A DNA stretch of 64,000 nucleotides, from the IMG/VR virus record IMGVR_UViG_3300028025_002046, positions 30,589 through 94,588 of that record. One strand, written 5' to 3'. Every line of letters begins with the position of its first letter. The stretch's first letter is position 1. Positions 9,862-26,800 of this stretch are shown here, piece by piece. Under the pieces are notes generated by a model. It ran no database searches. It was not told where the DNA came from and was given only the letters and a program-made list of their open reading frames with translations. The position numbers were made by a program, and so were the translations under genes. The DNA is from a virus.

Positions 9862-9943
9862 GGCGGTACCCAAAAATAACGGTTTGGTAACGAAACGTGT
9901 TATGTGTCGTTATAATGTCTGCCTATGTGCTTATAATTGACCT

Positions 9944-10093
9944 ATGAACGAAATCAAATGTGTAGTATGTGAAGACAAAGCAACCGAACTAGCCCTTGAT
10001 GTTTGGGGAGCAGACTTAGAGATTTGCGACAAGCAAGAGTGCTATGACGAAATTGCTGATGGTGATTGGATACACACAAAGCCACTGGCATAA
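9944..10093 (+). CDS. 49-aa Zn-finger-like microprotein, leaderless
   Basis: CVVC...CDKQEC; ATG 7 nt after TATAAT. Confidence 0.65.
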   Translation: MNEIKCVVCEDKATELALDVWGADLEICDKQECYDEIADGDWIHTKPLA

Positions 10094-10140
10094 TGTCTGC
10101 CCTATCAACTAAACTAATAACATCTAACAAAGGAAACTAA

Positions 10141-10263
10141 ATGGCTAACTACTCAGTATCAAGATTCAACGAACTAATGCGTATCGCTAAGAGTGATGAG
10201 TATATGAGTGAGAGTGAGTTCAATGAACTAATGGCTATCTTCAAGATTCGTGGGTATCACTAA
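10141..10263 (+). CDS. 40-aa microprotein (paralog of 12218-12340)
   Basis: MANYSVSRFNELMRIAKSDEYMSESEFNELMAIFKIRGYH; AAGGA RBS. Confidence 0.75.
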   Translation: MANYSVSRFNELMRIAKSDEYMSESEFNELMAIFKIRGYH

Positions 10264-10462
10264 TGGTTGAATGGATCATCTACCTATTTGGCTTATGGCT
10301 AATAGCGGTTATTCTTACTCAGTAAACTAATCGGCGTGTCGTCTTGACAAATGCCCCCGAAAGGGGGTACCAAAAATAACGGTTTGATAACGACACTACG
10401 ATATGACTTGCATAATGTCTGACCCTGTGCTTATAATTGAGGTATAAAGAAAGAGGTTCCAA

Positions 10463-10744
10463 ATGACTTACTACAACTACCGCCAAAACAACTCGGGTGG
10501 CTCGTTCTCTGACCCTGCCCTAAATGTTGTCGTCAAGGCAAATAGCCCTGCTGAGGCAGATGCGATTGCCATCACTAAGGGTATCTACTTTGACCCTGAG
10601 TTTGAGATTGATTGCGATTGCTGTGGTAACCGCTGGTATCCTGCTACTGAATACACTGCCTCAGATACCATTCCTGCTGTATCAGATTGGGATTGCCAAT
10701 GGGCTATCTCTGATGGTGTGTTTGCTCAGATAGTTGTTGAGTAG
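10463..10744 (+). CDS. Conserved phage hypothetical protein (QNNSGG motif family)
   Basis: YRQNNSGGSF...VKANSPAEA...GIYFD....DCDCCGNRW. Confidence 0.75.
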   Translation: MTYYNYRQNNSGGSFSDPALNVVVKANSPAEADAIAITKGIYFDPEFEIDCDCCGNRWYPATEYTASDTIPAVSDWDCQWAISDGVFAQIVVE

Positions 10745-10905
10745 GGGAAACCCTACTTGATACACACCTAAAAATGTGGGTACCCAAAAATAACGGTTTG
10801 ATAACGAAGCTTAATAAATGTGTAAAATACGGCGTGTCGCTACCTAAAATGTCATACCCCCTTGCTATGCTTACAGGGTAAGCAAAAAAGAAAAGGAAAT
10901 TGAAA

Positions 10906-11043
10906 ATGAAAAACGAACTAAAGAAGTGGCAACTATTCGAATACACCATTGACGGAGATGCTGTCGTTTCGTCAATCTACTACCTAGACATTGCGGAATT
11001 CCTAAAGGAACACCCTGAAGCAGTGCCAACTAACCACCGCTAA
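10906..11043 (+). CDS. 45-aa microprotein (paralog of 9706-9831)
   Basis: YTIDGDAV...AEFLKEHPEAV. Confidence 0.7.
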   Translation: MKNELKKWQLFEYTIDGDAVVSSIYYLDIAEFLKEHPEAVPTNHR

Positions 11044-11160
11044 AAGAAAAGGAAATTGAAATTGATAACACTAACTTTTGAAACTTGGGAAGAATTTGAT
11101 AACGCTCTAAGCGGTATCACTAGCCTAGTAATCGCTACTAATCCAGACCCTACTAAATAG

Positions 11161-11192
11161 TTATCCACAACTACTTATCCACCTGTGGATAA
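11161..11192. promoter_or_regulatory. DnaA box cluster (11161 +, 11175 + with 1 mismatch, 11184 -)
   Basis: TTATCCACA, TTATCCACC, TGTGGATAA. Confidence 0.7.
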
Positions 11193-11321
11193 CTTTGGTA
11201 CCCAAAAATAACGTTTTGGTAACAAACTTAAAAAGACCTACGATTTACGGCGTGTCGTTCCCTAAAATGTCCTACCCCTATGCTATGCTGAAAGCATAAA
11301 GAAAAAGAAATGAGAAATCAA

Positions 11322-11456
11322 ATGGCAGTAACAATCAAACTAACCCCTAGCGAATCAAACCTATTCAACTGCGAAATCTGTGGCAACCCTGCCAACAAGA
11401 TGAAACTAATGAACAGCGGTTACTGCCAATACACTTGTGCCAGATGTGCCAAGTAA
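11322..11456 (+). CDS. 44-aa zinc-ribbon microprotein (paralog of 12839-12967)
   Basis: LTPSES..FNCEICGNPA...SGYCQYTCARC. Confidence 0.7.
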   Translation: MAVTIKLTPSESNLFNCEICGNPANKMKLMNSGYCQYTCARCAK

Positions 11457-11501
11457 AATGTCATAGCCTACTGATAAACTAAATATATAAACAAAAGGAA
11501 A

Positions 11502-11547
11502 TGAGCCTTAGCAAATAAACGAGTAATCGGTGAGCCTAAGCAAATAA
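11502..11547 (+). ncRNA. Candidate cis-regulatory RNA, copy 1 of a 46-nt element
   Basis: Identical to 13221-13266 except two mutually compensatory changes; lies between promoter 11459 and ORF 11580. Confidence 0.5.
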
Positions 11548-11579
11548 GTTCCACTAACAAAAAAAGAAATGAGAAATAA

Positions 11580-11843
11580 ATGAACATCAACGAAATTCGC
11601 GAACAAGGTATCGGTTCAAACTTCAAGGTTATCAACCAAGCAGACGGATACCAAAAGAATAACCGCCTATGGTTTGGTGAGTGTGTTGAGTGTGGTGAGA
11701 GAGTAACCAATTCAAACCTAAAAGGTGTTTGGGTTCACACAATAATCTTAGAGCGTGACGGCTTGTCTACTAGGTCTAGAGATGTTGATTACTGCCCTAC
11801 CGCTCAAATTCAGGGTAACCTAGTTCAAGAGATTTCAATCTAG
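11580..11843 (+). CDS. Hypothetical protein with CxxC
   Basis: ORF track; downstream of promoter 11459. Confidence 0.65.
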   Translation: MNINEIREQGIGSNFKVINQADGYQKNNRLWFGECVECGERVTNSNLKGVWVHTIILERDGLSTRSRDVDYCPTAQIQGNLVQEISI

Positions 11844-11905
11844 GCAAAAACTTTTTGCGACACGCCAGGGATAACTTGACAAATCGCAAAAATTTTGGTA
11901 CCCGA

Positions 11906-11921
11906 TCGAACACTTGTTCGA
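11906..11921. promoter_or_regulatory. Perfect actinobacterial LexA (SOS) box
   Basis: TCGAAC-ACTT-GTTCGA matches TCGAAC-N4-GTTCGA. Confidence 0.75.
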
Positions 11922-12020
11922 ATGTAACGATTAGGTTACGGAAGCTCAGAAACACCCCTAAATCTAACTAAAATGTCAGACCCCCCTGTTACAATGAATA
12001 CATAAACGAAAGGCAAACTA

Positions 12021-12170
12021 ATGAAAAGAATTCACACAGTAATGGCGTTCCTACCAAACAAGAAGAAGGTTATTGACCTAACCTATGACGCAGACAATTT
12101 TACAGTAGAGCAAGCAATCAAGTCTGTGGAAGACAAGGGCTTGACAGTAATTTCGGTTTACACAAACTAA
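12021..12170 (+). CDS. 49-aa hypothetical microprotein
   Basis: GAAAGG RBS; own promoter 11974. Confidence 0.6.
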   Translation: MKRIHTVMAFLPNKKKVIDLTYDADNFTVEQAIKSVEDKGLTVISVYTN

Positions 12171-12217
12171 AATGTCTGACCCTACTGCTAAAATGAAATC
12201 AAACGAAAGGAAGTCAA

Positions 12218-12340
12218 ATGGCTAACTACAATGTTGCGAGATACAACGAACTAATGAGAATTGCTAAGAGCAACGAATTTATGTCTGAAAGCGAATTCAA
12301 CGAATTGGTTGGAATAATGAAAATTAGGGGATACCACTAA
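12218..12340 (+). CDS. 40-aa microprotein (paralog of 10141-10263)
   Basis: MANYNVARYNELMRIAKSNEFMSESEFNELVGIMKIRGYH, 32/40 identical. Confidence 0.75.
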   Translation: MANYNVARYNELMRIAKSNEFMSESEFNELVGIMKIRGYH

Positions 12341-12411
12341 AATGGAATTCCTATCCCTAGCCCTAATCGCTTTCGCAATCTATCTATTTATCAATCAGTA
12401 AAGGAAATCAA

Positions 12412-12612
12412 ATGTCTGTAACTATCAAGCGTAATGTAATTCTATCGGTTCTAGCAACCATCTTCTTCTTCGTGGCTAAGTCTGGTCTTGATGAAATGGC
12501 TAAGTCTGGTCTTGACGGCTTGGGAATGTTCCCTTTCCTAATCGGTGGCTTTGGCTTTCTAGGCTTCTCTATCGGTCTGGTTATTCGTCTATGGGGGAAT
12601 GAGAAAGAGTAG
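12412..12612 (+). CDS. Small two-TM membrane protein
   Basis: Two hydrophobic segments; internal duplication AKSGLD x2. Confidence 0.6.
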   Translation: MSVTIKRNVILSVLATIFFFVAKSGLDEMAKSGLDGLGMFPFLIGGFGFLGFSIGLVIRLWGNEKE

Positions 12613-12615
12613 GAG

Positions 12616-12645
12616 TTATCCACACCCTACCCCAAGTTATCCACA
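12616..12645 (+). promoter_or_regulatory. DnaA box pair (12616, 12637)
   Basis: TTATCCACA twice, 21-bp period. Confidence 0.75.
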
Positions 12646-12656
12646 GGGGGTACCCC

Positions 12657-12724
12657 CCGAACACTTGTTCGAATTTACGTAGCTTACGTAGCTCCCCCCC
12701 AGCTTTTTTCGAACAAAAGATCGA
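12657..12724. promoter_or_regulatory. Two LexA boxes, 1 mismatch each
   Basis: CCGAACACTTGTTCGA 12657-12672; TCGAACAAAAGATCGA 12709-12724. Confidence 0.65.
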
Positions 12725-12838
12725 ATGTAACGAATTGGTAACAAAATGCGACACACCCCCTAAAAGCCTATAAAAACTAACTAAAATGTCAGACCCCCCT
12801 GCTATGCTTACTATGTAAGCAAAAGAAATGAGAAATAA

Positions 12839-12967
12839 ATGAAATACCTACTAAGCCCAGCCGAATCAGCAAAGTTTCCTTGCGACCTTTGTGGCAAGCC
12901 AGCAACTAACGCCTATGTAATGCGTTCAGGATTCGTTCGTTACAATTGTAATCGCTGTGTGTCGTAA
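12839..12967 (+). CDS. 42-aa zinc-ribbon microprotein
   Basis: LSPAES..FPCDLCGKPA...SGFVRYNCNRC. Confidence 0.7.
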   Translation: MKYLLSPAESAKFPCDLCGKPATNAYVMRSGFVRYNCNRCVS

Positions 12968-13028
12968 CGCTAAAATGTCTTACCCTAATGCTAAAATAAA
13001 TTATCAAACAAAAAGAAAGAGCAACTAA

Positions 13029-13208
13029 ATGCCAAAGCCAAGAATGACCAAAGCCGAAAAAGCAATCGTGAAAGCGGTGAACGCAATTGTGTTCGCAAAT
13101 CCAGAAATCCGTAATGGCGGAAAATTCCTAGACAGAGCCGCTTTCCAAAAGTTGCCAGACCAGACCCAGAAAATCTATCTGGATTTGGTAATCAACAAAA
13201 CATTCTAA
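13029..13208 (+). CDS. 59-aa basic hypothetical protein
   Basis: Manual translation MPKPRMTKAEKAIVK...; own promoter 12976. Confidence 0.6.
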   Translation: MPKPRMTKAEKAIVKAVNAIVFANPEIRNGGKFLDRAAFQKLPDQTQKIYLDLVINKTF

Positions 13209-13220
13209 AACCAAATGGCG

Positions 13221-13266
13221 TGAGCCTGAGCAAATAAACGAGTAATCGGTGAGCCTCAGCAAATAA
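13221..13266 (+). ncRNA. Candidate cis-regulatory RNA, copy 2 of a 46-nt element
   Basis: TGAGCCTGAGCAAATAAACGAGTAATCGGTGAGCCTCAGCAAATAA, intergenic. Confidence 0.5.
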
Positions 13267-13287
13267 AGCCCTAACGAAAGGAAAACT

Positions 13288-13449
13288 ATGACAGCCAAAG
13301 AAAAAATCGAATTGCTTACTCGCAAGCACGAAAGAGGTTTGGTTATCTCTAACCTCTACTCTGCCATTCTCGCCTGTGATGAGGATGCCGATGAATGTGA
13401 TGTTTGTCTAGGCTTGAAATACGCAATTCAGCGGATAGAGAAAATGTAG
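13288..13449 (+). CDS. 53-aa hypothetical protein
   Basis: GAAAGGA RBS; manual translation. Confidence 0.6.
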   Translation: MTAKEKIELLTRKHERGLVISNLYSAILACDEDADECDVCLGLKYAIQRIEKM

Positions 13450-13479
13450 TTATCCACAGGTAACCAAAAGTTATCCACA
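13450..13479 (+). promoter_or_regulatory. DnaA box pair (13450, 13471)
   Basis: TTATCCACA twice, 21-bp period. Confidence 0.75.
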
Positions 13480-13573
13480 GGGCGTACCCACCCCCCTAGA
13501 TCATTTACGTAACCAATTAAATACCCCCCAGATTATTTCCCATAATGTCCGACCCCCTTGTTATACTTATCGT

Positions 13574-13717
13574 ATGAACGATAAGACGACTTGCTACCAC
13601 TGCCAGAAGAACAACACCTACGCTTTGGCTACCCTAAAAAATGGCAATGTTATGCGTGTGTGTAACCTATGCTCATTTTACCTTGACGACCTAATCACCA
13701 ACCTAGTAATTCTCTAA
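13574..13717 (+). CDS. 47-aa Zn-finger microprotein, leaderless
   Basis: CYHC...CNLC; ATG 7 nt after TATACT. Confidence 0.6.
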   Translation: MNDKTTCYHCQKNNTYALATLKNGNVMRVCNLCSFYLDDLITNLVIL

Positions 13718-13881
13718 GAAAGGAAAATCCCTATGGATGACGACTATGTAGAATATGATGAGTGCTATGAAGAGCCAGGTGACTTCTTTTCATAGCACCA
13801 CCCTTCGGGGGGTACCCCCAGCTCCGCTGGGTCGTTTACGTTAAGAAGTATAATGTCTGACCCCCCTGCTATACTTGAGGT

Positions 13882-14073
13882 ATGAATTCACGAAAGGCTA
13901 ACTCTATGACCACTCCTAACCCTAACCCTAATGTCGTTGGCTATGTCTGCGTTTACTGCCAGAAACTCTACCTGCCAGAAGAAACCATCTGCCTAGATTG
14001 TAACGAGTATGACGGAATGGTGGCTCTAACCAAGAACATCTTGGCTATGTTTGCTGACCCTGTTGTTTCATAA
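13882..14073 (+). CDS. Zn-ribbon hypothetical protein
   Basis: CVYC...CLDCNEYDG. Confidence 0.65.
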   Translation: MNSRKANSMTTPNPNPNVVGYVCVYCQKLYLPEETICLDCNEYDGMVALTKNILAMFADPVVS

Positions 14074-14128
14074 TGTCTGTGGCTACTGCTAAACTTACCC
14101 TATAAACCCTATCGAAAGGCTATCCCCT

Positions 14129-14224
14129 ATGTGCGATTGCGAAGACCGTCCTTGCTGTGGCTGCTACTCTATGGCTGACCTATACTCCAACTCTGGAGAC
14201 CCCTATGACCCTAACAACTGGTAG
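14129..14224 (+). CDS. 31-aa Cys-rich micropeptide
   Basis: MCDCEDRPCCGC; GAAAGG RBS; own promoter 14074. Confidence 0.55.
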   Translation: MCDCEDRPCCGCYSMADLYSNSGDPYDPNNW

Positions 14225-14329
14225 GTAACTACCCCCCCTGGGGGGTACCCCCAGATCTAGCTCTTTTACGTTAAGAACTATAATGTCCTACCCCCAATGT
14301 ATAATTGTATTATCAACGAAAGGTAAACT

Positions 14330-14596
14330 ATGTTAGAAATCGCATTTGGAATGAAGCAGGTTCAGAAGAACTCAACCGAGAACCCTATGGTCGCTATGAT
14401 GGCTCTGGAACTGGAAGACACTCGCAACAACCTAAGCGAAGATGAGTTTTTAGAGTTTCTTGCTAAGTTTGCTCTCTCTATCTCTGCTATGGCTATCTCT
14501 CAAACTGTTCAGTTGTGTCTTGATGAAACCACGCAAGATGAGTTGGAGAAAACCATTTTGGAACTAATGGAAATGGAAGATTTAGGTAAGGAGTAA
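14330..14596 (+). CDS. Acidic helical hypothetical protein
   Basis: ORF track; own promoter and RBS. Confidence 0.7.
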   Translation: MLEIAFGMKQVQKNSTENPMVAMMALELEDTRNNLSEDEFLEFLAKFALSISAMAISQTVQLCLDETTQDELEKTILELMEMEDLGKE

Positions 14597-14735
14597 TCTC
14601 CTACCCCCGAAAGGGGGTACGCCCAGCTCCGCAGGGCTGGTTTACGTAGCTAATTAAAAAGCTCCCAAACCTTTTTGCTAAAATGTCAGACCCCCTTGCT
14701 ATAATTGTATTATCAACCAAAAGAAATGAGAAATA

Positions 14736-14936
14736 ATGAACGACACTCCGCTAGTAATCCGCTCTAATGAAGTTGTAAACAACCTACGAGATGAGAAACT
14801 AAACTACGACACCTCCTACGCAAAAGCGTTTGGTGCTTGCTGGGGAGTAATGACCGACGAGCAACGACTAATCGTTTTGGAATACTCGCAACGCCAAGCA
14901 ATAATTATCAACACACTAGGAGAAGAAATAAACTAA
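14736..14936 (+). CDS. Hypothetical protein
   Basis: ORF track; own promoter 14684. Confidence 0.65.
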   Translation: MNDTPLVIRSNEVVNNLRDEKLNYDTSYAKAFGACWGVMTDEQRLIVLEYSQRQAIIINTLGEEIN

Positions 14937-15115
14937 TGATGACACGCAAAGACTATGTAGCAACCGCAGAAATTCTAAATTCTTATGTTCACAATTTAGA
15001 CGCTCCAATTTTTGATTGCCTAGTTCAAGATTTTGTGGCTATGTTCGCAGAAGATAACGACCGCTTTCTAATTGATAAGTTTGAAGACGCTTGTTGGGGA
15101 ACGGCTAGGGAGTAA
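14936..15115 (+). CDS. Conserved phage hypothetical protein (MTRKDY...DNxRF...F..AC family)
   Basis: Start overlaps upstream stop; recognisable motif. Confidence 0.7.
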   Translation: MMTRKDYVATAEILNSYVHNLDAPIFDCLVQDFVAMFAEDNDRFLIDKFEDACWGTARE

Positions 15116-15224
15116 TCCCTGCTCCCCTGGGGGTACGCCCCCACCCCTAGCTCGTTTACGTAACGCATTAAATTTACCCTAGATTTATTCCTAAAATGTC
15201 TTACCCCTGATGTATAATAAAACT

Positions 15225-15395
15225 ATGAAGAAAAAGAAACCACCACTAGGCAAGGTCGCCAACGCTACTCGCAAGGCTCACGCCAAGGAATTGTTCCAGA
15301 GCCTTTTACTCAACAAGCACTTAGTCGTTACCCCTGCCAACCGCAAGGGTTCACGACAGAGCAACAACCAAAAAGCAATTAGGGAGAGTTACTAA
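15225..15395 (+). CDS. Basic leaderless microprotein
   Basis: ATG 7 nt after TATAAT; K/R rich. Confidence 0.6.
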   Translation: MKKKKPPLGKVANATRKAHAKELFQSLLLNKHLVVTPANRKGSRQSNNQKAIRESY

Positions 15396-15700
15396 TGGAT
15401 GAACTATTTATTGTAATCAACGACAAGGGATACGCTGTTGAGATGTGTCTTACCGAGCAAGAAGCGTTAGAGTGGATTGCTAAATTTGGTAACAAAAACT
15501 ATTCTATCGATTTGGATGTGGTGTGCTAATGAAAGTTTATGTAGTTATTGAGACTTGTTGTATGCACTTTTGTGGAGTATACAAGGACAAGGCTGAGGCT
15601 GATGCCTATGCCGAAGAGAATGACTATTCCGTCTATGAGTATGACCTTTAGTGTCATACCCTCACGCTATAATTGAAACACCCTAACGAAAGAGAAACTA

Positions 15701-16168
15701 ATGAAAGCAATTATCGAATCTAACTGTGTTTGTGAACCAGACGAAGAAAACCCTGAAAGCCTAAATTGCTACGGTGACTGCTGGGAATGGCAGAAAGAAG
15801 ACGTTCAGTGGATTATCGGTGAATGGGCAACTAAGAATGAAGTAGCCGAAGGACAGCCAATTCTAATTACTGGCACAAACATGAACTGGAACCATGTTTC
15901 AGGCTGGGCAACCGCAACACCAGAAACCATTCTCGATAAACTAACCTTGAACGGTGATTTTAGTTTAGAGTTTGACTTTGACCCTGATGAAAATACTTTC
16001 AATGTTGTTCGTCGTTCTCACGATGAAATGGGAGCGTTGTTTACTTTTGTAATCATGGAGCCATGCAACCAGTGTGGAGTAGGAATTCCACGAGAGATTT
16101 ATAACGAAGAACTAGGCATGTGTCTTGAATGTTCAAATGCTTACTTCAACCATGAGGATGAAGAATGA
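15701..16168 (+). CDS. Acidic hypothetical protein with C-terminal Zn finger
   Basis: ORF track; promoter 15652. Confidence 0.7.
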   Translation: MKAIIESNCVCEPDEENPESLNCYGDCWEWQKEDVQWIIGEWATKNEVAEGQPILITGTNMNWNHVSGWATATPETILDKLTLNGDFSLEFDFDPDENTFNVVRRSHDEMGALFTFVIMEPCNQCGVGIPREIYNEELGMCLECSNAYFNHEDEE

Positions 16169-16324
16169 TAGAGTTTGGAGTTATCCTAATAGCGATAGGT
16201 TTGGTTATCCTACTGAATCAGTAGATACCCCCCGAAAGGGGGTACGCCCTATCGATCAGCTGCTTTACGTAGCCATAATGTCAGACCCTAAATGTATAAT
16301 GGTATTATCAAAGAAAAGGAAACT

Positions 16325-17044
16325 ATGTCACTCATTCGCTCTAAAGACCGTAAAGTTGCTAACCAAGTAAACAAGGCTGGCAGTCAGGCTTCAATGGCTA
16401 ACACTTTTGGATTACCTAGTGGCAAGGCTTTTTCCTGCCCTGGGGCTACCTCGGTTTGTGAGACTATTTGTTACGCTGGCAAACTTGAAAAGGTATTCAA
16501 GGGTGTTCGCAATGTTTTGGTATCTAACTATGAGCAACTACTGGCAACCGATACTCTAGGCATGATTGCTTTGATTGACGAAATGATTCAAGACTTCAAG
16601 CAGGAATGTGAAAAGCGTAATGCCGATAAGTTATTCCGTATTCACTGGGACGGAGACTTCTTTAGCGAGGACTACACTAGAGCATGGAATTTTGTTATCC
16701 GCCTAAACCCTGATGTTCAATTCTGGGCTTACACTCGTTCAGACTTTGCTGTTCCAATTCTAATTGACATTCCTAACCTAGCCCTATACTTCTCTGCTGA
16801 TTCTGCTAACAAGACTTTGGCATGGGAACTAAAGCGTAAGTATGGTGTGAAACTTGCTTACCTCGCCAAAGACTTTGCTACAGGCAAGAGTGACTTCAAT
16901 GAGCAACAGGAAAAGTCTGCTGTTCCCTGCCCTGAAAACAACAAGAAGATTCCAATGATTAGCGAAAAGGGCAGTGCTTGCGTGATGTGTTCGCAGTGTG
17001 TGTTTGCTCGCAATGACATTCTGTTTAGTGCTACTAAAAAGTAG
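16325..17044 (+). CDS. Phage Gp88-like (radical-SAM-related) protein
   Basis: FGLP.G..FSCPGAT..C...CYA; FRIHWDGDFF; FWAYTR; CP...C..C..C. Confidence 0.75.
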   Translation: MSLIRSKDRKVANQVNKAGSQASMANTFGLPSGKAFSCPGATSVCETICYAGKLEKVFKGVRNVLVSNYEQLLATDTLGMIALIDEMIQDFKQECEKRNADKLFRIHWDGDFFSEDYTRAWNFVIRLNPDVQFWAYTRSDFAVPILIDIPNLALYFSADSANKTLAWELKRKYGVKLAYLAKDFATGKSDFNEQQEKSAVPCPENNKKIPMISEKGSACVMCSQCVFARNDILFSATKK

Positions 17045-17411: not shown

Positions 17412-17417
17412 TTCACC

Positions 17418-20266: not shown

Positions 20267-20293
20267 AGTGCTGGGTATCACTATAAACTACCC
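20267..20293 (+). ncRNA. H-type pseudoknot motif copy
   Basis: agtg-c-tgggta-t-cact-ataaac-taccc. Confidence 0.6.
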
Positions 20294-20457
20294 CCACATG
20301 GGCGTACCCCTCCCTGCCCCAAGATCCATTTACGATAGCTTTAAGAAATCTCCAGAAAATTCCCCAAAACTTTTTGCTAAATAGTATTGACAAACAGAGT
20401 GTTTGCCTGTATAATTAGACTATACACAAATCAACCACTAACAGAAAGAGAACCCCT

Positions 20458-21474
20458 ATGGCTCACGAACTAGAACAAGGCGAGAATGGCGAAGTTGCTT
20501 TTGCTTCGCTACGCCAACCTGCTTGGCACAATCTAGGCACTGTCTTTGAAGAGCAGGTCAATACAGCAGAGATGCTGAAACTTGCTCACCTTGATAATTG
20601 GAATGTTCGTCTTGAAGATGTAACCATTCCAGAAAACTTTGAGAGCGACAAAAACTATTCGTTCGTTACTCGCACTAACCCTTTTGATAACACCAAGAAT
20701 GATGTTCTCGGCGTTGTCGGTGAGCGTTATGTTCCCCTACAAAACGAAGACCTATTTTCGTTTGGCGACAACCTGCTAGACGGCGGTGGTCGTTGGGAAA
20801 CCGCTGGCTCAATCAAGGGTGGTCGTCAGGTGTTCGGCTCTATCGCTTTGGCTGATAGCATTACCCTAGACCCTAATGGTCGTGCTGATAAGATTGATAA
20901 CTATCTTCTAATCAACACTTCTCACGACGGAAGCATTGCTATTCAGGCAAGTATCACGCCTGTTCGTGTTGTATGTGCTAACACTCTCAACCTTGCTCTA
21001 TCTTCATTCAAGGGCAAGAAAGCAGCGAAGCAGACTTTCAAAATCCGCCACACTTCAACTGCCGAAGGTAAAATCGCAGTTGCTCGTGAAGCACTAGGTC
21101 TTGCCAAGACTTACCTAGACGAGTTTTCTCTTATGGCTAACGCTATGATTGAAAAGGAAATCACTAAGGCTGACTTTGATAAGATTGTCGCTCTTGCTTA
21201 CCCTGCTCCTGAAAAAGACGCTAAGGGTTCATTCAAGAAATACGACAGCAAGATTGACCTGCTAAACGACATTTATGTTGGGCAATTCAATGACACCATT
21301 TCTGGAACTGCTTGGGGAGCATACAACGCTCTAACCGAACGCCTAGACTGGTATCGCTCTGCTCGTGGTGGAAGCAACGAGAGTATCTACGCTTCTGCTT
21401 CTGGCTTTGACCCTGTAATCAACGCAGAGAAGAACCGCTTGATGAAGATTGTTCAACAGGTTGTAATGGCGTAA
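20458..21474 (+). CDS. DUF932 / TIGR03299 phage-plasmid-like protein
   Basis: AWHNLG; LGVVGERYVPLQNE; ETAGSIKGG; SHDGS; TPVRVVCANTL; RHT; GTAWGAYNALTE. Confidence 0.85.
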   Translation: MAHELEQGENGEVAFASLRQPAWHNLGTVFEEQVNTAEMLKLAHLDNWNVRLEDVTIPENFESDKNYSFVTRTNPFDNTKNDVLGVVGERYVPLQNEDLFSFGDNLLDGGGRWETAGSIKGGRQVFGSIALADSITLDPNGRADKIDNYLLINTSHDGSIAIQASITPVRVVCANTLNLALSSFKGKKAAKQTFKIRHTSTAEGKIAVAREALGLAKTYLDEFSLMANAMIEKEITKADFDKIVALAYPAPEKDAKGSFKKYDSKIDLLNDIYVGQFNDTISGTAWGAYNALTERLDWYRSARGGSNESIYASASGFDPVINAEKNRLMKIVQQVVMA

Positions 21475-21621
21475 GCCATTCTCCCTTGCTCCTGGCAGTA
21501 AAATGTCAGGGGTATAGGGGGTACCCAGCTATCGATCTTATTTACGACACACCTTACGATATCCCTATAATGTCATACCCTACCCTTATAATAGATACAT
21601 AACCCGAAGAAAGGAAAAGCA

Positions 21622-21807
21622 ATGCCTAAATACCAAATAGAAATGATGATTGAATTCTCTGGTGAGATTGAAGCAGACAACGAAGAACACGCAGAACAAC
21701 TTGCTTGGACGAGTTGGGGAGATACAATGGATAGCCCTATCGTTTATGACGGTGTTTATTCAATTGAAGTAGAAGCAGTAGACGAAGAAGAAGACGAGGA
21801 AGACTAA
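21622..21807 (+). CDS. Acidic microprotein (EA-x3-A family)
   Basis: EIEADNEEHAEQLA. Confidence 0.65.
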   Translation: MPKYQIEMMIEFSGEIEADNEEHAEQLAWTSWGDTMDSPIVYDGVYSIEVEAVDEEEDEED

Positions 21808-22052
21808 TGGGAGCAAGAATAAATCCAGACGACATTCAGTTTCGTAAAGACGCTGACTACTATATGGACCCTATCGGTCTAGCAGTCATCCTTATTGAAG
21901 AGATGATTGACTGGGGTATTGAACGAGACCGAATGATTGTTGAGAAACTACCAGAAGAACACATTTGGTATTTTGATGGTCTACTCCGTCGAACAGAAAC
22001 TATCCTAGACAGACTAGGTGTAGAGAACATTCCAGTAGTAGGTGATTGCTAA
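21807..22052 (+). CDS. Hypothetical protein
   Basis: ORF track; coupled start/stop. Confidence 0.6.
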   Translation: MGARINPDDIQFRKDADYYMDPIGLAVILIEEMIDWGIERDRMIVEKLPEEHIWYFDGLLRRTETILDRLGVENIPVVGDC

Positions 22053-22151
22053 TGAGTGATTGTATTGAGAATGATAACGGACGTTGTATGTTCTGTGGTG
22101 CTATAATGTCTGACCCTACCGCTATAATTGAAGCCTAACCAAAGGAGAACA

Positions 22152-22325
22152 ATGTCTAAAACCTATCAAGTAGAATACAATGCTGTCTATTGGGTAACTG
22201 CCAATAGCGAAGAAGAAGCAATTGAGTTGGCTATTGAAGAACACGAACAAATGCCTAATGGCGATTGGGAAGCAATGATAGACCCTTATGACAGCGACAA
22301 CTTCAACACACTAGGAGAGAAATGA
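22152..22325 (+). CDS. Acidic microprotein (EA-x3-A family)
   Basis: AGGAG RBS; WVTANSEEEAIELA. Confidence 0.65.
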   Translation: MSKTYQVEYNAVYWVTANSEEEAIELAIEEHEQMPNGDWEAMIDPYDSDNFNTLGEK

Positions 22326-22863
22326 CACAACTAGAAAGCCTACTAGAAGAAAAGGCAGAACTGCTTCAAGACTTTGAAGATGTAAAGAATATGCTAAGTG
22401 ATTCAGGACACGACCTATTCCTAAACAGGATAGATATGCTTGACAGTATGATTGAGATTGAGTTGAACAATGCCTAATTACATTATTGTTGCTACTAGAA
22501 AACAAGAGTTTGAGATTGATGCTGTTGATTTTCCAGATGAACAGGCTGCCCTTGCTTCTTTGGATAATTGGATTGCTGATGACTTTGAAGCATTTGCTAT
22601 TCAGGCAACTTGGGATTTTGAGGTGTTAGCAAATGACTAGACCTGCTTGTGCTTGGTGTGGTATGGATGAAATGGATGAGTATGCCTCATTCAACGGTAA
22701 AGATATTTGTATAGATTGTGCAGGAGAATAATGAGTTATAGCACTTGTAGAGAATGTCTTGAAGACTACCTAGATGAAGACCTAAATGATTTTATGGTTT
22801 GTTATGTATGTGACCACGAATGTGACGAAACCTGTAATAATCCCTGTAATGTAAAGGAAGCAA

Positions 22864-23055
22864 ATGAGTAAAAAGATAAACATCAAATTTGAATTGAACT
22901 ATGATTTGGAAGACCTACGCTTTATGGTGGGGGAAGACTTTCCAGAAGAACAATTTCGTGAACGAGTAATTGAATATGCTTTCCACGACCTACACGAAAT
23001 GTTGCGTAGCGATAGCGTAGATGCTTGGGCAGATGTGGAAGAAATCAATGAGTAA
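22864..23055 (+). CDS. Acidic hypothetical protein
   Basis: ORF track; AAGGA RBS. Confidence 0.6.
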   Translation: MSKKINIKFELNYDLEDLRFMVGEDFPEEQFRERVIEYAFHDLHEMLRSDSVDAWADVEEINE

Positions 23056-23245
23056 CGCTATGGGAGAAATCACAGTAGGCGAAGCGTATGAAGAAGGTTT
23101 CTATGATGCTAGGGCAAGTGTATTAGAACTAATAGATGAGTGGTATACGGAGTATAAATCAAGTTTAGACTTGCTACCCTTGCCAGTTGCGATTGGCTTT
23201 TTGAAACAGGCTATCTTAGATGCCGATGTTTTAGATATGGAGTAA
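23048..23245 (+). CDS. Hypothetical protein
   Basis: ORF track; AYEEGFYDA motif. Confidence 0.55.
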   Translation: MSNAMGEITVGEAYEEGFYDARASVLELIDEWYTEYKSSLDLLPLPVAIGFLKQAILDADVLDME

Positions 23246-23418
23246 CATCCACCCGAAAGGGTGGGTACCCCCAGTTAACATAATATAGTTAAACTAAATA
23301 ATTAATTACGAAAGCGGATTAAGATCCCCGAAATCTTTTCCCAGAAATTTAGCTTTTGCTATTGACAAATGAGGCGTTATGCCTTATACTTGTAATACAA
23401 CCCAAAAGAAAGAGAACA

Positions 23419-23931
23419 ATGCATACCCTACAATACATTGCAATTCAATCAGAAGATAAAGAGAGTGCAGCCAACACAGTAAAGAACCTACTAGAAGAAG
23501 AACTAAATCCTGGTTCGTCTTGGTATGACTGGTTCGTTGTAGGTGGAGGTCGCTTTGCTCCTAATCCAGAAGACCAGTATGATGACACCCATGAGACTGT
23601 TATCTCCTATGCAGATACCCCTGACATTTTTGATGAGAAAGTTGGAGACTGTATGAAATCCAAAGGTCGTGAGTATCAGGAACTCTATACAGATTACAAA
23701 CTAAATAAAGAAGAAATAGAGAAGACCTTTGAGGCTTGGAATGGCAACATGGAATTCTCTATGGCTCTCTATCCACTACGGAAGATGTTGGACATTGTTC
23801 AAGGACATTGGGATTACACATCTCGTGTATACGACATTACCAATTGGTCTACCAATACCCACCACATGAACAGAAGTCTAGCAGACGGAAACAAAAATTG
23901 GTTCCTTGTGCCTGTTGACTTTCACTTCTAA
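23419..23931 (+). CDS. Conserved phage hypothetical protein (WxDW..vGG.R ... vDxH family)
   Basis: WYDWFVVGGGRF; C-terminal VPVDFHF; sigma-A promoter 23362. Confidence 0.75.
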   Translation: MHTLQYIAIQSEDKESAANTVKNLLEEELNPGSSWYDWFVVGGGRFAPNPEDQYDDTHETVISYADTPDIFDEKVGDCMKSKGREYQELYTDYKLNKEEIEKTFEAWNGNMEFSMALYPLRKMLDIVQGHWDYTSRVYDITNWSTNTHHMNRSLADGNKNWFLVPVDFHF

Positions 23932-23970
23932 ACCTGCTATACTTATACTCCCACAAACAAAGGAAACGAA

Positions 23971-24171
23971 ATGGCTACATTTGAAGTCACTGTGACTTAT
24001 CACTTCGACACAACTTACGAAGTCGAAGCAGACAACTATGAACACGCAGAATACAAAGCCCTAGAAGAAGCAACCGAATGGAAGCCTTACTCATCTGAAA
24101 AGGGATACACCGAAGACTGGTATCAGGTAGAAGTTGAGCCAGCCCTGATTAGCGGAGAGATTGAAGACTAA
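23971..24171 (+). CDS. Acidic microprotein (EA-x3-A family)
   Basis: YEVEADNYEHAEYKA. Confidence 0.65.
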   Translation: MATFEVTVTYHFDTTYEVEADNYEHAEYKALEEATEWKPYSSEKGYTEDWYQVEVEPALISGEIED

Positions 24172-24596
24172 TGATATTAGTAGACAATTGGGTAGACACC
24201 TACAAGCCAATCAAGAATGAGAATAACGACTGGGGTGGAACCTACTCTGCCTTTGAAACCTATGGAACAGAACTAGACTTCGTATGGTCTAAGCCTAACA
24301 ATCTTGTTTGGACTGAGATTGACGGTGACGAGGGTAGTTACATTATCGCTGGCAAGCACATTGTAAATCGCCTACAATACTTTGTATGCGAAGTGCCTTG
24401 GGAAGATGAGAACCTTATGGTCGCTATCTCTGTTGAGCAAGAGTGTGAACTCTGTGGCGGAACAGGCGAGCAACCACTTGGAGAAGATGAAGTAGAAGAC
24501 TGCGACACCTGTGGTGGTCGTGGCTACTGGCAGGTCTATCCAGACACTATGGAAGAACTAGAAGCACTAATCGGGAAAGAGAGAGCAAATGGCTAA
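24171..24596 (+). CDS. Hypothetical protein with DnaJ-type CxxCxGxG zinc finger
   Basis: CELCGGTG...CDTCGGRG. Confidence 0.7.
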   Translation: MILVDNWVDTYKPIKNENNDWGGTYSAFETYGTELDFVWSKPNNLVWTEIDGDEGSYIIAGKHIVNRLQYFVCEVPWEDENLMVAISVEQECELCGGTGEQPLGEDEVEDCDTCGGRGYWQVYPDTMEELEALIGKERANG

Positions 24597-25280
24597 ATAC
24601 GTCAAGCACCTAAGCAACGAAGAACTAATGGCAAGAATAGCAGATGACCTAGTTAGTATGCATAATGATACTGGTATTCATCTTGGATACTGGGAGACGG
24701 CTATGGAACTTGTAGAACGTTTTTACCACGTAAATGTTGAAGTAATCGTAGGAGAGAAGAAGAACTATGAAAGCGTTTGAGAACCTTGCCTTTGACAGGG
24801 AGAACTTTGAGAGTTGGGTAGATGAAAGTCTACAGACCAGGCTTACTGATGAGCAGTGGGAGCGTGTCAAGGATGAACTTGACGGACGTGTAGAGAACTA
24901 CTTGGACCAGATGATTTACGACGTTGTGCTAGAGTTTAGGGAGGGAGCCTTCGATGAATAAGGACTGGGACCTAAACATCTTCTTCAAAGAAGTATGGGA
25001 TGAGAACGTAGAAGAGTATGTGCTTGAAGATGTGTTGACTATCAATCCTGTAGTCTACATGTATGACAGTAATGGTTCTAATAATCATTATTCAGATATC
25101 ATCTGGACCACTACCTTTGCAGAAGCACGTTACCTACGGAGCCAGTATCCAGAGAAAGAATACGGCTACGACTGGACTGACACCATTAGCAACTTCATAG
25201 AGATTGCACCACCTAGGCTGAAGTCTCTAGCCATGGCATTACCCAGTGCCTACGATTACAAGATAGACTTGGTGGGTTGA
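24589..25280 (+). CDS. Three overlapping acidic hypothetical ORFs (24589-24780, 24767-24961, 24954-25280)
   Basis: ORF track; translational coupling. Confidence 0.6.
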
Positions 25281-25413
25281 GACTACTCCTCATCAGGATA
25301 CGCTAAGGGGTTGGCGTATTCGGTGGTAGGTTGAGAGACGTTATTTCCTTTCACTCTTGACCTACCACCACAATTTTGGTATAATAGAAGTTACAACTAA
25401 ATACGGAGAACAA

Positions 25414-25608
25414 ATGACAAACGACGAAAACAAAGTAGCAGACAAGATTGGAAAACTTGTATCAGACCTAACATTAGACATTGAGCAGGTAGGACTTTAC
25501 ATTGGACGACAACCGAATGTAATTCTAAATAGATTAGAAATCATTACCGAGACAGCACGAGAAGAAAAGGAAGACCTACATTTGACCATTGACAATGATT
25601 GGCGGTAG
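25414..25608 (+). CDS. Hypothetical protein
   Basis: GGAG RBS; promoter 25357. Confidence 0.65.
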   Translation: MTNDENKVADKIGKLVSDLTLDIEQVGLYIGRQPNVILNRLEIITETAREEKEDLHLTIDNDWR

Positions 25609-25623
25609 GTGTATAATAGAACT

Positions 25624-25914
25624 ATGAACGAAACCACTATAGATAACAAATGTAACATCCTAGCAGAACTATGGATGGACTACCGAGATGATGTAAACTT
25701 TGATGACTTCATCAACTACGCTGACTTAGGTTTGCCATTGGCATACGCTATCAGTAATGAGATAGTCAAACTTACTCCACAGGCAGAGAAGTTTATCACG
25801 GAGGCTTTTGATTTGCTAGTAGCAAGTATGGGTCTAGAAGATACAGGCTTTGAAACTCTGGATGACATTTTCATGGAAGGCGATTTAGAAGCTTTCGAAG
25901 ATCCAGAAGAGTAA
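25624..25914 (+). CDS. Acidic hypothetical protein, leaderless
   Basis: ATG 7 nt after TATAAT; last gene of plus-strand block. Confidence 0.7.
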   Translation: MNETTIDNKCNILAELWMDYRDDVNFDDFINYADLGLPLAYAISNEIVKLTPQAEKFITEAFDLLVASMGLEDTGFETLDDIFMEGDLEAFEDPEE

Positions 25915-26800
25915 CCAGTGGATCCCCTGCAAAGGGGAGACCTGGGGTACCACATCTTATTCAATTTGTCAATAGCCAATTTATCCAATATAAAAAAGTA
26001 TTACGATAGCTTCAAATTTTCCCCATATTCTTTATATATATCACTATCAAAATAGATTACGATAGATCATATATTTTCCCATATTCATGTATCAGCCTAT
26101 ATAGTGTATATACCTATAGGGATATTACGATAACCTTTAGCTACCCCCGAAGGGCTGGCAGAGCCAGGGTATTACGAATGATAAGCAAAATCCCCTATAT
26201 AAGATACAACACCATATCGTTTGATATTGATTGATTATCTTTATTTATTTAAAAAAACATTACGATATTCGTTTATTTTTCCCCAAAATTGATATATTAT
26301 TGAGAATAATTATCATTAAGAATATACTTGACAAATGTGGATATATGTGCTAGGGGATAGGGGGCTATGGGAAAATGATTACGAGGCTTAAGATACATGA
26401 GCTCTATTACACATATATATTTCCCAAATCCATCTTATTGAGAATGAGTATCAACAACAGTAAGATCTTTGTGGATAACTCTGTGGATAAAACCTATCCA
26501 AAATAGCCTTTAAAGGGGGTATAGAGAGACTTTAATCTGTCTCTGAATGTTCTGGGGTATCGAATATTTGCTGTATCAGATAGGCTTGCAAAAGATCTTT
26601 TCCTAATACATCCCTATACTCTCCAGCTACATTTATTAGATATGTGGCATCAGGGAATATGATGTATTTGCTTTTATTAGCCATGTGTTTCTCCTTATAG
26701 GTTTATTATGTTATATAGGTATTACGAAGCTTCTTCGTTGTTCCCCGAAATTTCTAGATCCAAGATCTCTTCCATAGCAGTCTCTAAAGACTTAGGAATA
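25915..26800. repeat. AT-rich convergent region with no credible ORF: 7 TTACG repeats (6 followed by a C-tract), two Zur/Fur-like boxes and a DnaA box pair
   Basis: TTACG at 26001, 26057, 26125, 26172, 26260, 26379, 26722; TGTGGATAA at 26470 and 26482; TATTGAGAATAATTATCATTA at 26298; TATTGAGAATGAGTATCAACA at 26436. Confidence 0.7.

Follow-up and report, generated by a model that had tools for sequence, protein, structure and literature searches.

What marks the GTAC-centred junctions that recur between the small genes of an uncultured, freshwater, actinobacterial phage? The record of this phage spans 94.6 kb (88% complete), and 64,000 nucleotides of it, here called the window, were analysed. 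Its DnaE-type polymerase is 55% identical to polymerases of Streptomyces phages, the genome also encodes a mycobacteriophage GP88 family protein, collagen-like tail fibres and an ORF of 2838 amino acids, and the host is apparently a low-GC freshwater actinobacterium. A sequence-only reading had described the junctions as nineteen modules of hairpin, GTAC core and TTACG that bind a protein or are nicked or recombined, and had likened them both to the promoter-stem-loop cassettes of T4-type phages and to integron attC arrays. We favour, with a probability of roughly 0.55, that each module is a composite boundary between transcription units that resembles the T4-type elements, with repeats that act as substrates for homologous shuffling and with a lineage-specific core that acts at the DNA level.

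Anatomy of the nineteen junctions

All 19 core positions reported earlier were correct: GTAC occurs exactly 19 times between 9865 and 25951, as GGTACC (14 copies), GGTACG (3) or CGTACC (2), and never inside an ORF. GTAC is absent from ~11.7 kb of block ORFs vs a density of 1.09 per kb in the rest of the genome, and of the 15 GGTACC sites in the 94.6-kb genome, all but one are in the block. The cores closely follow stop codons, as had been claimed (11-56 nt in 18 modules, 184 nt in one), and precede the next start codon by 77-250 nt. The modules are spaced ~0.4-1.7 kb apart, all in one orientation.

Folding energies likewise upheld the claim that many cores sit at the foot of a hairpin that lacks a U-tract. 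Stretches of 42 nt that end at the core had a mean of -13.6 kcal/mol, compared with -5.2 kcal/mol (sd 3.5) for random block windows, and a hairpin precedes 14-15 of the 19 cores. The stems are short (4-7 bp), GAAA and TTCG are frequent loops (GNRA/UUCG type in RNA), and UACCCC rather than a U-tract comes next. We rejected an identity with intrinsic (Rho-independent) terminators, since the search for a GC hairpin plus U-tract returned 14 terminator-like sites, a chance number, none of which coincides with any module. RNA-library contigs cross the modules with cores at 15132, 16241 and 21520, suggesting that any stop at these sites is leaky, unless the contigs represent DNA carry-over.

At four modules (cores at 9865, 11197, 12649 and 13483), DnaA-box-like GTTATCCACAGG repeats occupy the place of the GC hairpin, as direct pairs 21 nt apart in three of them, and the module at 11897 has no good hairpin. 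From the left, all on the + strand, module 1 (9831-9892) consists of a GTTATCCACAGG pair, GGTACC and CAAAAATAACGGTTTGGTAACG; module 2 (10354-10392) has the hairpin CCCCC-GAAA-GGGGG, GGTACC and TAACG repeats, with TTGACA 17 nt 5' of the core; and module 3 (10741-10806) has a weak hairpin, GGTACC and TAACG repeats. Inverted DnaA boxes form the hairpin of module 4 (11160-11224), which continues with GGTACC and TAACG/TAACA. LexA-type boxes appear in module 5 (11890-11940; GGTACC, the box CGAAC-N4-GTTCG at 11907, then TAACG-N6-TTACG) and in module 6 (12615-12692; a DnaA-box pair, GGGGGTACCCCC, the box at 12658, then two copies of TTACGTAGC). Module 7 (13449-13511) combines a DnaA-box pair with CGTACC, GATC and TTTACGT.

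TTTACGT also closes the next five modules: module 8 (13796-13842), with a TTCG-loop hairpin, GGGGGTACCCCC and AGCT; module 9 (14226-14272), with a hairpin, a 17-nt palindrome around GTAC and AGATCT/AGCT; modules 10 (14600-14648, GAAA-loop hairpin) and 11 (15117-15162), each with a hairpin, GGTACG and AGCT; and module 12 (16226-16271), with a GAAA-loop hairpin, GGTACG and ATCGATCAGCTG, which is one of those spanned by an RNA-library contig. Module 13 (17024-17090) has an AT-rich hairpin, GGTACC, AGCT and TTTACGTTACGA; module 14 (18178-18228) has the hairpin CCCCAG-GAG-CTGGGG, GGTACC and TTTACGT; and module 15 (19464-19508) has a hairpin, GGTACC, GATC/AGCT and TTTACGA. In module 16 (20283-20336), a hairpin, CGTACC, GATC and TTTACGA are followed by TTACGA-N17-CAGAAA and a consensus TTGACA-17-TATAAT promoter, and module 17 (21489-21560) carries a hairpin, GGTACC, AGCT/ATCGATC and two TTACGA boxes. 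Module 18 (23249-23312) is a special junction (TTGACA-N15-17-core-N8-CATAAT) that is also present in relatives; its GAAA-loop hairpin and GGTACC are followed by N8, CATAATAT, an AT-rich stretch and ATTACGA. Module 19 (25921-26007), a hairpin and GGTACC, opens a non-coding array (25995-26745, + strand) of seven ATTACGA-N17-C(A/C)nAAT elements and two TGTGGATAA boxes (26470 and 26482); the array word is identical to the TWACG box of the modules, and the array is conserved in relatives although it is non-coding.

The information in the modules is limited to two short motifs, namely the palindrome GGGGTACCCC (GGGG-GTAC-CCCC, 10-12 bp) and (T)TWACG(W). Consistent with the downstream TTACG described earlier, 17 of 19 modules have TWACG 21-27 nt past the G of GTAC, and those at 23264 and 25946 have it farther away; AGCT/GATC or a one-off variant stands 2-4 nt ahead of TTACG in most modules. 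Genome-wide, GTAC-N12-24-TWACG has 16 forward matches, all within the block, and one reverse match (~4 expected). Since the core is conserved while both flanks carry almost no information, the core is under selection and not a recent copy.

A promoter then follows 35-137 nt 3' of the core in 18 of 19 modules, also as had been proposed. Sixteen of these are of the TGTC-box type, with the box 8 nt before TAnnnT and no -35 element, and only those at 20387 and 23362 are of the consensus type (TTGACA-17-TATAAT/TATACT); further consensus -35/-10 promoters lie at 17187, 25357 and 25589. The 27 TGTC-N-(T/G)ACCC..-N8-TAnnnT promoters (9473-22128, + strand), whose geometry is RecA-NDp/PafBC-like, bring the block total to 32, of which 14 have no module ahead, indicating that the module is dispensable at some boundaries.

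GGTACC and TTTACGT might themselves be the -35 and -10 elements of an alternative (ECF-like) or phage sigma promoter in tandem with the TGTC-box promoter. They resemble GGAAC and CGT, lie on the genes' strand ~17-19 nt apart in several modules, and in one junction type the core stands 8 nt before CATAAT, which is the TGTC-box geometry. However, the spacing varies between 17 and 23 nt, with two modules at 37 and 51 nt, the cores of relatives occur in both orientations, and neither sigma region 2 nor a WYL protein was found encoded. In addition, relatives recombine between the GGTACC-type and TTACG-type halves, so we give such a promoter hardly any credence. This recombination, together with the variable spacing between the halves, indicates that the proposed single module, whose parts are real, is two juxtaposed elements: the hairpin and core belong with the upstream unit, and the TWACG box with the downstream promoter.

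A kept layout with a swapped core

We compared the block with 25 related uncultured phages and with an independent complete genome of 92.9 kb (G002). The relatives keep the layout of hairpin or DnaA-box pair, GC-rich palindromic core, GATC/AGCT, TWACG box or boxes and TGTC-box promoter, and TWACR lies within 10-50 nt 3' of the core on the coding strand for 75-95% of each relative's cores. The core itself differs per relative (GGTGCC, GTCGGGC, GCCGACC, GTGCGCC, TGCGCC, GCCTAGG and others), and orthologous junctions differ in the core slot only. For example, the window junction at 12658 (DnaA pair, GGGTACCCC, LexA box, TTTACGTAGC) corresponds to position 2552 of relative L013, which has AGCCGACCCC in the core position. 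G002 has its own core, GTCGGGC/GCCCGAC, in 18 copies, all of them in its early block (3.6-14.4 kb) and none elsewhere. Both core orientations occur in relatives (7+5 in L015, 13+5 in L017 and 7+4 in L013), a pattern that argues for recognition as double-stranded DNA. No protein emerged as a candidate for reading the core; the sole clear helix-turn-helix protein near the block, a GerE-like protein (8995-9171), is missing from five relatives, one of them a complete genome.

Alternatively, no dedicated reader might exist: the core would prolong the 3' element structurally, as another small hairpin or palindrome (G-run, X, C-run), and its letters would depend on the short palindromes that restriction in the current host tolerates, hence the uniform copies. 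Every relative's core is indeed a G-run, 2-8 nt and a C-run, and ViennaRNA folds GGGGG-GUA-CCCCC at 13811 and 14244. Absent 4-mers track core type, with AGCT/GATC-less genomes using TGCGC and the GCGC-less genome studied here using GTAC, and X and its reverse complement are both found, as a loop flip-flop between inverted arms predicts. Closely related strains (runs X6 and X2) have GGTGCC in place of GGTACC, which abolishes the GTAC palindrome; the core centre can therefore change, as would also be expected of a purely structural element. Structure alone should nevertheless covary, whereas the central GTAC is invariant in 19 of 19 modules while hairpin loop and downstream spacer are free to vary. 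Moreover, the non-palindromic cores GTCGGGC, GCCGACC and CCCGAGC are equally uniform in their genomes, and where relatives have canonical U-tract terminators, the core stands apart, 8-35 nt past the terminator. We consider a core without a reader rather unlikely.

Restriction could also have shaped the block as a whole. The block ORFs (11.7 kb) hold one AGCT, one GATC, no GTAC and no TTAA, vs 1.1-5.2 per kb elsewhere in the genome; the spacers have about the rest-of-genome density of these words (0.5-1.4 fold), with GTAC ~3.6-fold higher, and the purged zone also exists in relatives and G002. The block might then be expendable DNA that enters first, with units purged of restriction sites and spacers that keep them, so that the host would cut between cassettes, the units would stay expressible and the cut ends would be recombinogenic. 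In phage T5, only first-step-transfer DNA is EcoRI-sensitive, and its tiny early gene block likewise needs restriction resistance and is rich in repeats and palindromes, with DnaA boxes in pairs; the T5 repeats cluster in a single untranslated region (iss), whereas those described here stand at gene boundaries (Davison, bioRxiv 10.1101/866236). Yet linear cut fragments would be exposed to exonucleases, GTAC is invariant at a fixed place and thus more than tolerated, and the cores of relatives keep GCGC that is otherwise absent from their genomes, making first entry a very improbable explanation.

Cassette exchange and recombination sites

Gene presence and order vary among the 25 relatives, and 11 of 46 tested ORFs have no homologue in any of them. 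Relatives have no fixed gene order, and the modules mark genuine cassette boundaries. Joins of non-adjacent modules, looked for in near-identical strains, fall exactly at cores in several contigs: the X6 joints 10349->11201 and 10347->10791 represent the loss of cassettes between two modules, and the X2 joints 13481->11197 and 16243->14622 also lie at cores, the latter being a back-joint in a co-occurring strain with the GGTGCC core. Other contigs join promoter to promoter (9919->10847, 11483->14719 and 12991->11303), and joints in promoters or 5' UTRs are at least as many as those at cores, where all joints derive from contigs assembled from mixed metagenomes and aligned at >=88% identity rather than from single-clone reads. 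Because joints fall equally in promoters/5' UTRs and at GTAC, the pattern is that of homologous exchange between repeats and not of site-specific recombination; the idea of a recombination site thus holds insofar as cassettes are shuffled at modules, but not in its site-specific form.

A site-specific recombination or nicking site, either attC-like or of the HUH, REP/RAYT or IS200/IS605 type, would be cut at GTAC or TTAC. The conserved tetranucleotide at the foot of a hairpin, TTAC ~20 nt away, the joints exactly at cores and an Endonuclease VII-family gene at the left edge of the block (7696-8145) are all consistent with such a site. Four modules have no hairpin, however, and the missing integrase noted for the window extends to the 94.6-kb record (88% of the genome), where tyrosine recombinases/integrases (PF00589), resolvases/serine recombinases and Y1 transposases (PF01797) gave no match. 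No HUH-type nuclease was matched by Pfam among the larger ORFs scanned, which came from the window (the contig from 30.6 kb onwards) and, away from the block, had about 150 amino acids or more. With cassettes that have their own promoters and with the distribution of joints described above, we regard a dedicated cutting site as quite improbable.

Integron attC sites are recombined by the integrase IntI, through R''-L''/L'-R' repeats and a GTTRRRY core, and their cassettes are promoterless and read from one Pc promoter. Like attC sites, the modules recur as structured sequences at the 3' ends of small cassettes, and the cassette order varies. An attC identity was rejected: PF00589 is unmatched, the block has 32 promoters, the only information is GGGGTACCCC plus TWACG, neither R''-L''/L'-R' nor GTTRRRY is present, and crossovers are not limited to one point. 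The boundary signal is not integron-like, and the analogy drawn by the sequence-only reading does not hold. REP/BIME elements of enterobacteria, which contribute to mRNA 3' stability and to attenuation and bind proteins, are likewise species-specific extragenic palindromes at gene 3' ends with a conserved tetranucleotide at the hairpin foot, but they are chromosomal and far longer than these phage elements; a REP/RAYT or IS200/IS605 site was rejected for want of a match to the cognate Y1 (HUH) transposase.

Phage intergenic repeats and a proposed composite boundary

Several actinobacteriophage clusters have their own intergenic repeats, namely the 17-bp (Cluster O) and 18-bp (Cluster EG) inverted repeats, the 18-bp motif of Cluster EC and the SAS/ESAS of Cluster K (PMC7302621). 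Like the modules, these are short, lineage-specific, often inverted and present in 8-20 copies in short gaps, but they lie 14-30 bp 5' of start codons, whereas the core described here follows stop codons, is shorter and comes together with a hairpin and a TWACG box. In Cluster A mycobacteriophages, stoperators are asymmetric, 13-14 bp long and aligned with the direction of transcription, and the immunity repressor of these temperate phages blocks elongation there (PMC6550527, PMC9283540). They too have many lineage-specific copies in short intergenic gaps, with specificity that diverges between relatives, and their elongation block resembles the role that the modules may have. We rejected a stoperator identity on the grounds that the core is palindromic and found in both orientations in relatives and that no repressor (among the Pfam-scanned ORFs) or integrase was found; the sites are, moreover, confined to the early block.

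The T4-type analogy, on the other hand, fits, with real boundaries, variable order and joints at cores. PeSLs combine an early promoter with a polyG/polyC stem-loop in hyperplastic regions, where recombination occurs between copies (Arbiol et al. 2010, PMC2839356; Comeau et al. 2014, PMC4122927). PeSL stem-loops terminate transcription, and mini-circles form between copies. Both systems place a composite motif of promoter and terminator (a putative one in our phage) with polyC/polyG stem-loops between small orphan early genes of a hyperplastic region, have insertion, deletion and replacement end points in the motif, lack a dedicated recombinase and come with a recombination system of the phage's own. 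Here, a stem-loop adjoins an early promoter at most modules, and copies flank orphan genes and contain indel end points. Two PeSL traits were not found, the sigma-70 -35/-10 promoter with an AT-rich upstream region (16 of 18 promoters have a TGTC box and -10) and the T4-like myovirus, this being a long-tailed phage with an apparently low-GC freshwater actinobacterial host and the polymerase, GP88 family protein and tail fibres described above. Furthermore, an additional lineage-specific palindromic core and TWACG boxes stand between hairpin and promoter, and DnaA-box-like repeats can substitute for the hairpin.

In the composite boundary that we favour, the modules of this lytic actinobacterial phage would each lie between two small early units of transcription. 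The upstream unit would contribute a 3' element, a short GC hairpin in RNA, replaced by DnaA-box-like repeats in four modules, that may attenuate read-through and/or protect the mRNA 3' end. Directly after it, the lineage-specific palindrome GGGG-GTAC-CCCC would be read at the DNA level, as the putative site of a probably dimeric DNA-binding factor; its slot in these junctions is also taken by DnaA and LexA boxes. The 5' element of the downstream unit would comprise one to three TWACG boxes after AGCT/GATC, ahead of a host-type TGTC-box promoter that has no -35. Since these elements recur in the same orientation and a RecA gene is part of the phage genome (51446-52462), homologous exchange, with RecA as its probable agent, would reshuffle the cassettes as PeSLs do in T4-like phages: exchange from module to module and from promoter to promoter would delete, insert and reorder cassettes while the genes stay uncut.

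Anatomy of the boundary modules

The genes between ~7.7 and 25.9 kb lie on the + strand and mostly have fewer than 100 codons, with minus-strand structural and replication genes on both sides of this early block. The sequence-only reading had placed 19 cassette-junction modules here, each built on a core around GTAC, and every core coordinate proved right: the interval 9865-25951 holds GTAC 19 times, exclusively at the modules. GTAC is absent from the block ORFs (about 11.7 kb) compared with 1.09 per kb elsewhere in the genome, and 14 of the 15 GGTACC copies in the genome are modules. The cores do follow shortly after stop codons (11-56 nt in 18 cases), and a promoter is located 35-137 nt downstream in 18 modules; 14 of 32 promoters have no preceding module.

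A GC hairpin without a U-tract had also been proposed at the core. Windows ending at the core folded with a mean of -13.6 kcal/mol, while windows drawn at random from the block averaged -5.2 kcal/mol (sd 3.5). Every module hairpin indeed lacks a U-tract, but four modules carry GTTATCCACAGG repeats instead of a hairpin. Three of these four are direct pairs with a spacing of 21 nt; at module 11197, the GTTATCCACAGG boxes are inverted and form a hairpin. A canonical terminator scan performed at chance level, with no site coinciding with a module. Because GAAA or TTCG loops, which are RNA-type tetraloops, recur and the stems vary while remaining complementary, the hairpin looks like an RNA-level element. 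A separate 3' element with a constant ...(T)AAACTGC... was observed at 17418-17450 and 18012-18130, as well as downstream of the DUF932 gene in five relatives (L008, L009, L013, L014 and L024); its flanking arms seem to vary together (GAG/CTC, GGGC/GCCC, AGGCA/TGCCT), and the element may be a covarying RNA structure located where some units end.

In a position matrix of the modules, information was confined to GGGG-GTAC-CCCC and (T)TWACG(W). The pattern GTAC-N12-24-TWACG gave 16 forward-strand matches across the genome, all inside the block, when ~4 matches were expected, and the GTAC-to-TWACG spacing varied among modules. We rejected a -35/-10 pairing of GGTACC with TTACGT, since their spacing ranges over 17-23 nt, with further cases at 37 and 51 nt, and the cores occur in both orientations among relatives. 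A special junction at 23264 reads TTGACA-N15-17-core-N8-CATAAT(AT), as does, in most relatives, the one that follows the DUF932 gene, with the core in the position that the TGTC box takes in ordinary promoters; the core at these DUF932-gene junctions and at 23264 may be a promoter element. Taken together, the module feature is real and highly non-random, and its architecture is conserved.

A constant architecture around a private core

The source of the window is an IMG/VR phage contig of 94.6 kb, 88% complete, of which it makes up the right two thirds. The gene products of the phage include a DnaE-type polymerase with 55% identity to Streptomyces phage polymerases, together with DnaB, DnaG, RecA, ribonucleotide reductase, ThyX, an M23/PG-binding lysin, a PASTA-domain protein, a mycobacteriophage GP88 family protein and DUF932. 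Promoter geometry follows the actinobacterial RecA-NDp/PafBC layout (TGTC....-N8-TAnnnT), the LexA boxes are of the Gram-positive type, and the phage is present in sequencing runs from freshwater and subsurface metagenomes, which together make a low-GC freshwater actinobacterium the most likely host.

A megablast search with the block as query gave zero matches among 50,697 phage records, an Rfam search (E<=1) returned nothing relevant, and an IMG/VR pattern scan for the first-type module (GGTRCCCAAAAATAACG) yielded chance matches only, in unrelated high-GC giant-phage contigs. Using the DUF932 protein, we retrieved 25 related contigs. None had GGTAC at its junctions, yet all 25 shared the module architecture: either a DnaA-box pair or a hairpin, the latter in some cases a full U-tract terminator, then a GC-rich core consisting of a G-run, 2-8 nt and a C-run, then GATC or AGCT, then between one and three TWACG boxes spaced by about one helical turn, in many cases TTACGA-N17-CCAAAT after them, and finally a TGTC-box promoter.

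An unbiased 7-mer count recovered one private GC-rich word in each genome. With copies given per orientation, these were GGGTACC in this window (11 copies, being a palindrome), GGTGCCC in L015 (7+5), GTCGGGC in L017 (13+5), GCCGACC in L013 (7+4), GTGCGCC in L009 (9+4), GAGCGCC in L011 (7+4) and L012 (6+4), TGCGCCC in L014 (8+1) and L024 (9+1), TCTGCGC in L007 (7+5), GCCTAGG in L020 (4+4), CCCGAGC in L025 (8+0) and GCATCGG in L026 (6+5). On the coding strand, TWACR follows 75-95% of private cores at a distance of 10-50 nt. In G002, a complete relative of 92.9 kb, all 18 copies of its own core fall in the 11-kb early block, with none in the other 78 kb.

The core swap is directly visible at orthologous junctions. 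The order at 12658 is DnaA pair, GGGTACCCC, LexA box and TTTACGTAGC; at L013 2552 it is DnaA pair, AGCCGACCCC, LexA box and TTTACGTAGC, and at L017 2886 the core slot holds GGGGTCGGGC. The core is thus lineage-specific and, because it is invariant amid free flanks, under selection; its presence in either orientation points to action on double-stranded DNA. The two halves of the module are separable, because relatives share TTACGA-to-promoter parts behind different cores (near-identical in L006 versus L010) and the GTAC-TWACG spacing is variable.

Additional motifs were observed around these sites. LexA boxes of the Cheo type (CGAAC-N4-GTTCG) directly follow the core at 11907, 12658 and 12710, with the same layout in L005, L013 and L017. 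A GGCGTGTCG / CGACACGCC motif occurs in either orientation at 10340, 10833, 11250, 11858 and 12748 and in many relatives, often just before a TTGACA or TGTC-box promoter, and is among the top repeated 7-mers of L005, L009, L010, L011, L012, L017, L022 and L026.

As for a reader of the core, the phage encodes neither a sigma factor nor a WYL protein. A 58-aa protein (8995-9171, + strand) consists solely of a helix-turn-helix of the GerE/LuxR or sigma-70 region-4 type (Pfam GerE, 24.4 bits against a cut-off of 23.5), but it is missing from five relatives, one of them a complete genome, and we rejected it as the reader. A sister strain has GGTGCC and L015 has GGTGCC/GGCACC, variants that suggest a GGYRCC-type degenerate palindrome; such a core may be read by a dimer that tolerates changes at the centre, or may be purely structural. 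A single slot filled by a lineage-specific palindrome points either to a rapidly diversifying putative reader or to host restriction systems leaving their mark directly on regulatory DNA.

Purged palindromes and the edges of the block

The block ORFs (9400-25960; 11.7 kb) contain AGCT once, GATC once, GTAC and TTAA not at all, ACGT 6 times, TGCA 9 times and ATAT 11 times, compared with 1-5 per kb of these palindromes in the remaining genome; AATT and CTAG escape the purge. While the block transcription units are purged of all seven words, the spacers retain them. Relatives have an equivalent purged zone, as does the complete G002, where AATT is also purged. Across the 94.6-kb genome, GCGC, CCGG and GGCC are absent and CGCG occurs once (expected: GCGC 89, CCGG 60). 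CCGG and CGCG are missing from all relatives except two short ones, L019 and L025, and the set of absent words among AGCT, GATC, GCGC and GGCC differs between relatives, a pattern that suggests differing restriction repertoires in their hosts. The core type follows each genome's forbidden 4-mer repertoire. In a Pfam scan that covered the larger ORFs of the window, no DNA methyltransferase was recognised.

At the far end of the block, 25995-26745 is a non-coding array of seven ATTACGA-N17-C(A/C)nAAT elements, AT-rich DNA and two TGTGGATAA boxes (26470 and 26482). Its nucleotide sequence is conserved among relatives, and it could serve as a replication origin or resemble the T5 iss region. The + strand excess of TTACG at 26.5-28.5 kb was discounted, as it reads CGT-AAA within minus-strand ORFs, probably as Arg-Lys codons; just the seven intergenic copies at 25995-26745 were counted. 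A second TGTGGATAA pair, 12 nt apart, was observed in the divergent region at the block start (7522-7542), so DnaA-box pairs bracket the block. In T5, restriction-sensitive DNA is limited to the first-entering part, which carries paired DnaA boxes (bioRxiv 10.1101/866236); by analogy, the block may be first-entering DNA.

Cassette exchange and the meaning of the modules

The proposal that cassettes are shuffled fits the relatives, in which gene order is not fixed and shared genes are reordered. Both the 163-aa gene and the 61-aa gene switch sides of the DUF932 gene between relatives, L007 and L027 have an inverted segment, and 11 of the 46 block ORFs tested have no homologue in any relative. 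We also aligned contigs from four public metagenome runs to 8000-27000. In run X6, cassette deletions were joined exactly at modules (10349->11201 and 10347->10791), with GGTGCC replacing GGTACC. Run X2 contained a joint at 13481->11197 and, in a minor strain with GGTGCC cores, one at 16243->14622; the latter back-joint could have been a mini-circle, but the four letters between its sides show the GGTGCC core of a co-occurring sister strain with another cassette order.

Many further joints lie in promoters or 5' UTRs (9919->10847, 11483->14719, 12991->11303, 12006->11560), and replacements in operons without modules follow start and stop codons (18755->18920, 22729->22863). The pattern is that of exchange by homology or microhomology among repeats of regulatory DNA rather than of a single recombination point. 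The window encodes no integrase, as originally stated, and the 94.6-kb record as a whole has no integrase, resolvase or Y1 transposase; since joints are spread over promoters and 5' UTRs as well as cores, we rejected the proposed likeness to integron attC arrays. The phage does encode RecA and an Endonuclease VII-family (HNH-like) protein (7696-8145, + strand), whose gene lies in AT-rich DNA at the left edge of the block. RNA-library contigs span three modules; therefore, any termination at modules is partial, or these contigs derive from DNA.

The other suggested analogy, to the cassettes of T4-type phages, fits closely. Promoter-early stem-loops (PeSLs) combine an early promoter with a polyG/polyC stem-loop in hyperplastic regions, and recombination between copies generates insertions, deletions and mini-circles without a dedicated recombinase (PMC2839356, PMC4122927). 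The modules differ from PeSLs in virus group, promoter type and the additional core and TWACG elements. Actinophages often carry intergenic repeats that are lineage-specific and have no assigned function (PMC7302621), and stoperators can block elongation (PMC6550527, PMC9283540), but the modules differ from both in position, symmetry and context. Membership among attC sites, REP/RAYT elements or intrinsic terminators fails in each case on the features tested. Our best reading, to which we assign a probability of roughly 55%, is a PeSL-like composite boundary that doubles as a recombination joint and carries an additional lineage-specific DNA core.

A bolder and rather unlikely alternative is that each phage of the clade marks its early cassette boundaries with a private word of 6-12 bp (GTAC here, GCGC or GGCC in relatives), drawn from words already lost elsewhere in the block or genome through restriction avoidance. 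Its reader would be a fast-evolving factor, either binding or cutting DNA, that insulates units and steers breaks, and hence cassette exchange, to intergenic gaps. If true, this would amount to programmed, lineage-specific shuffling without an integrase, in DNA that is probably the first to enter the cell.

On the PeSL-like reading, the modules would be portable boundary parts for phage engineering, and the principle that regulatory repeats serve as recombination joints, by which phages can exchange small host-takeover genes safely, would extend from T4-like phages of Gram-negative bacteria to freshwater actinobacterial phages, an abundant and uncultured group. Beyond PeSLs, the short palindrome in one slot differs from lineage to lineage, while the adjoining DnaA, LexA and TWACG sites stay unchanged. 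Combined with the sharp depletion of 4-bp palindromes in transcription units, this swapped core would offer a way to test how early phage DNA withstands host defences.
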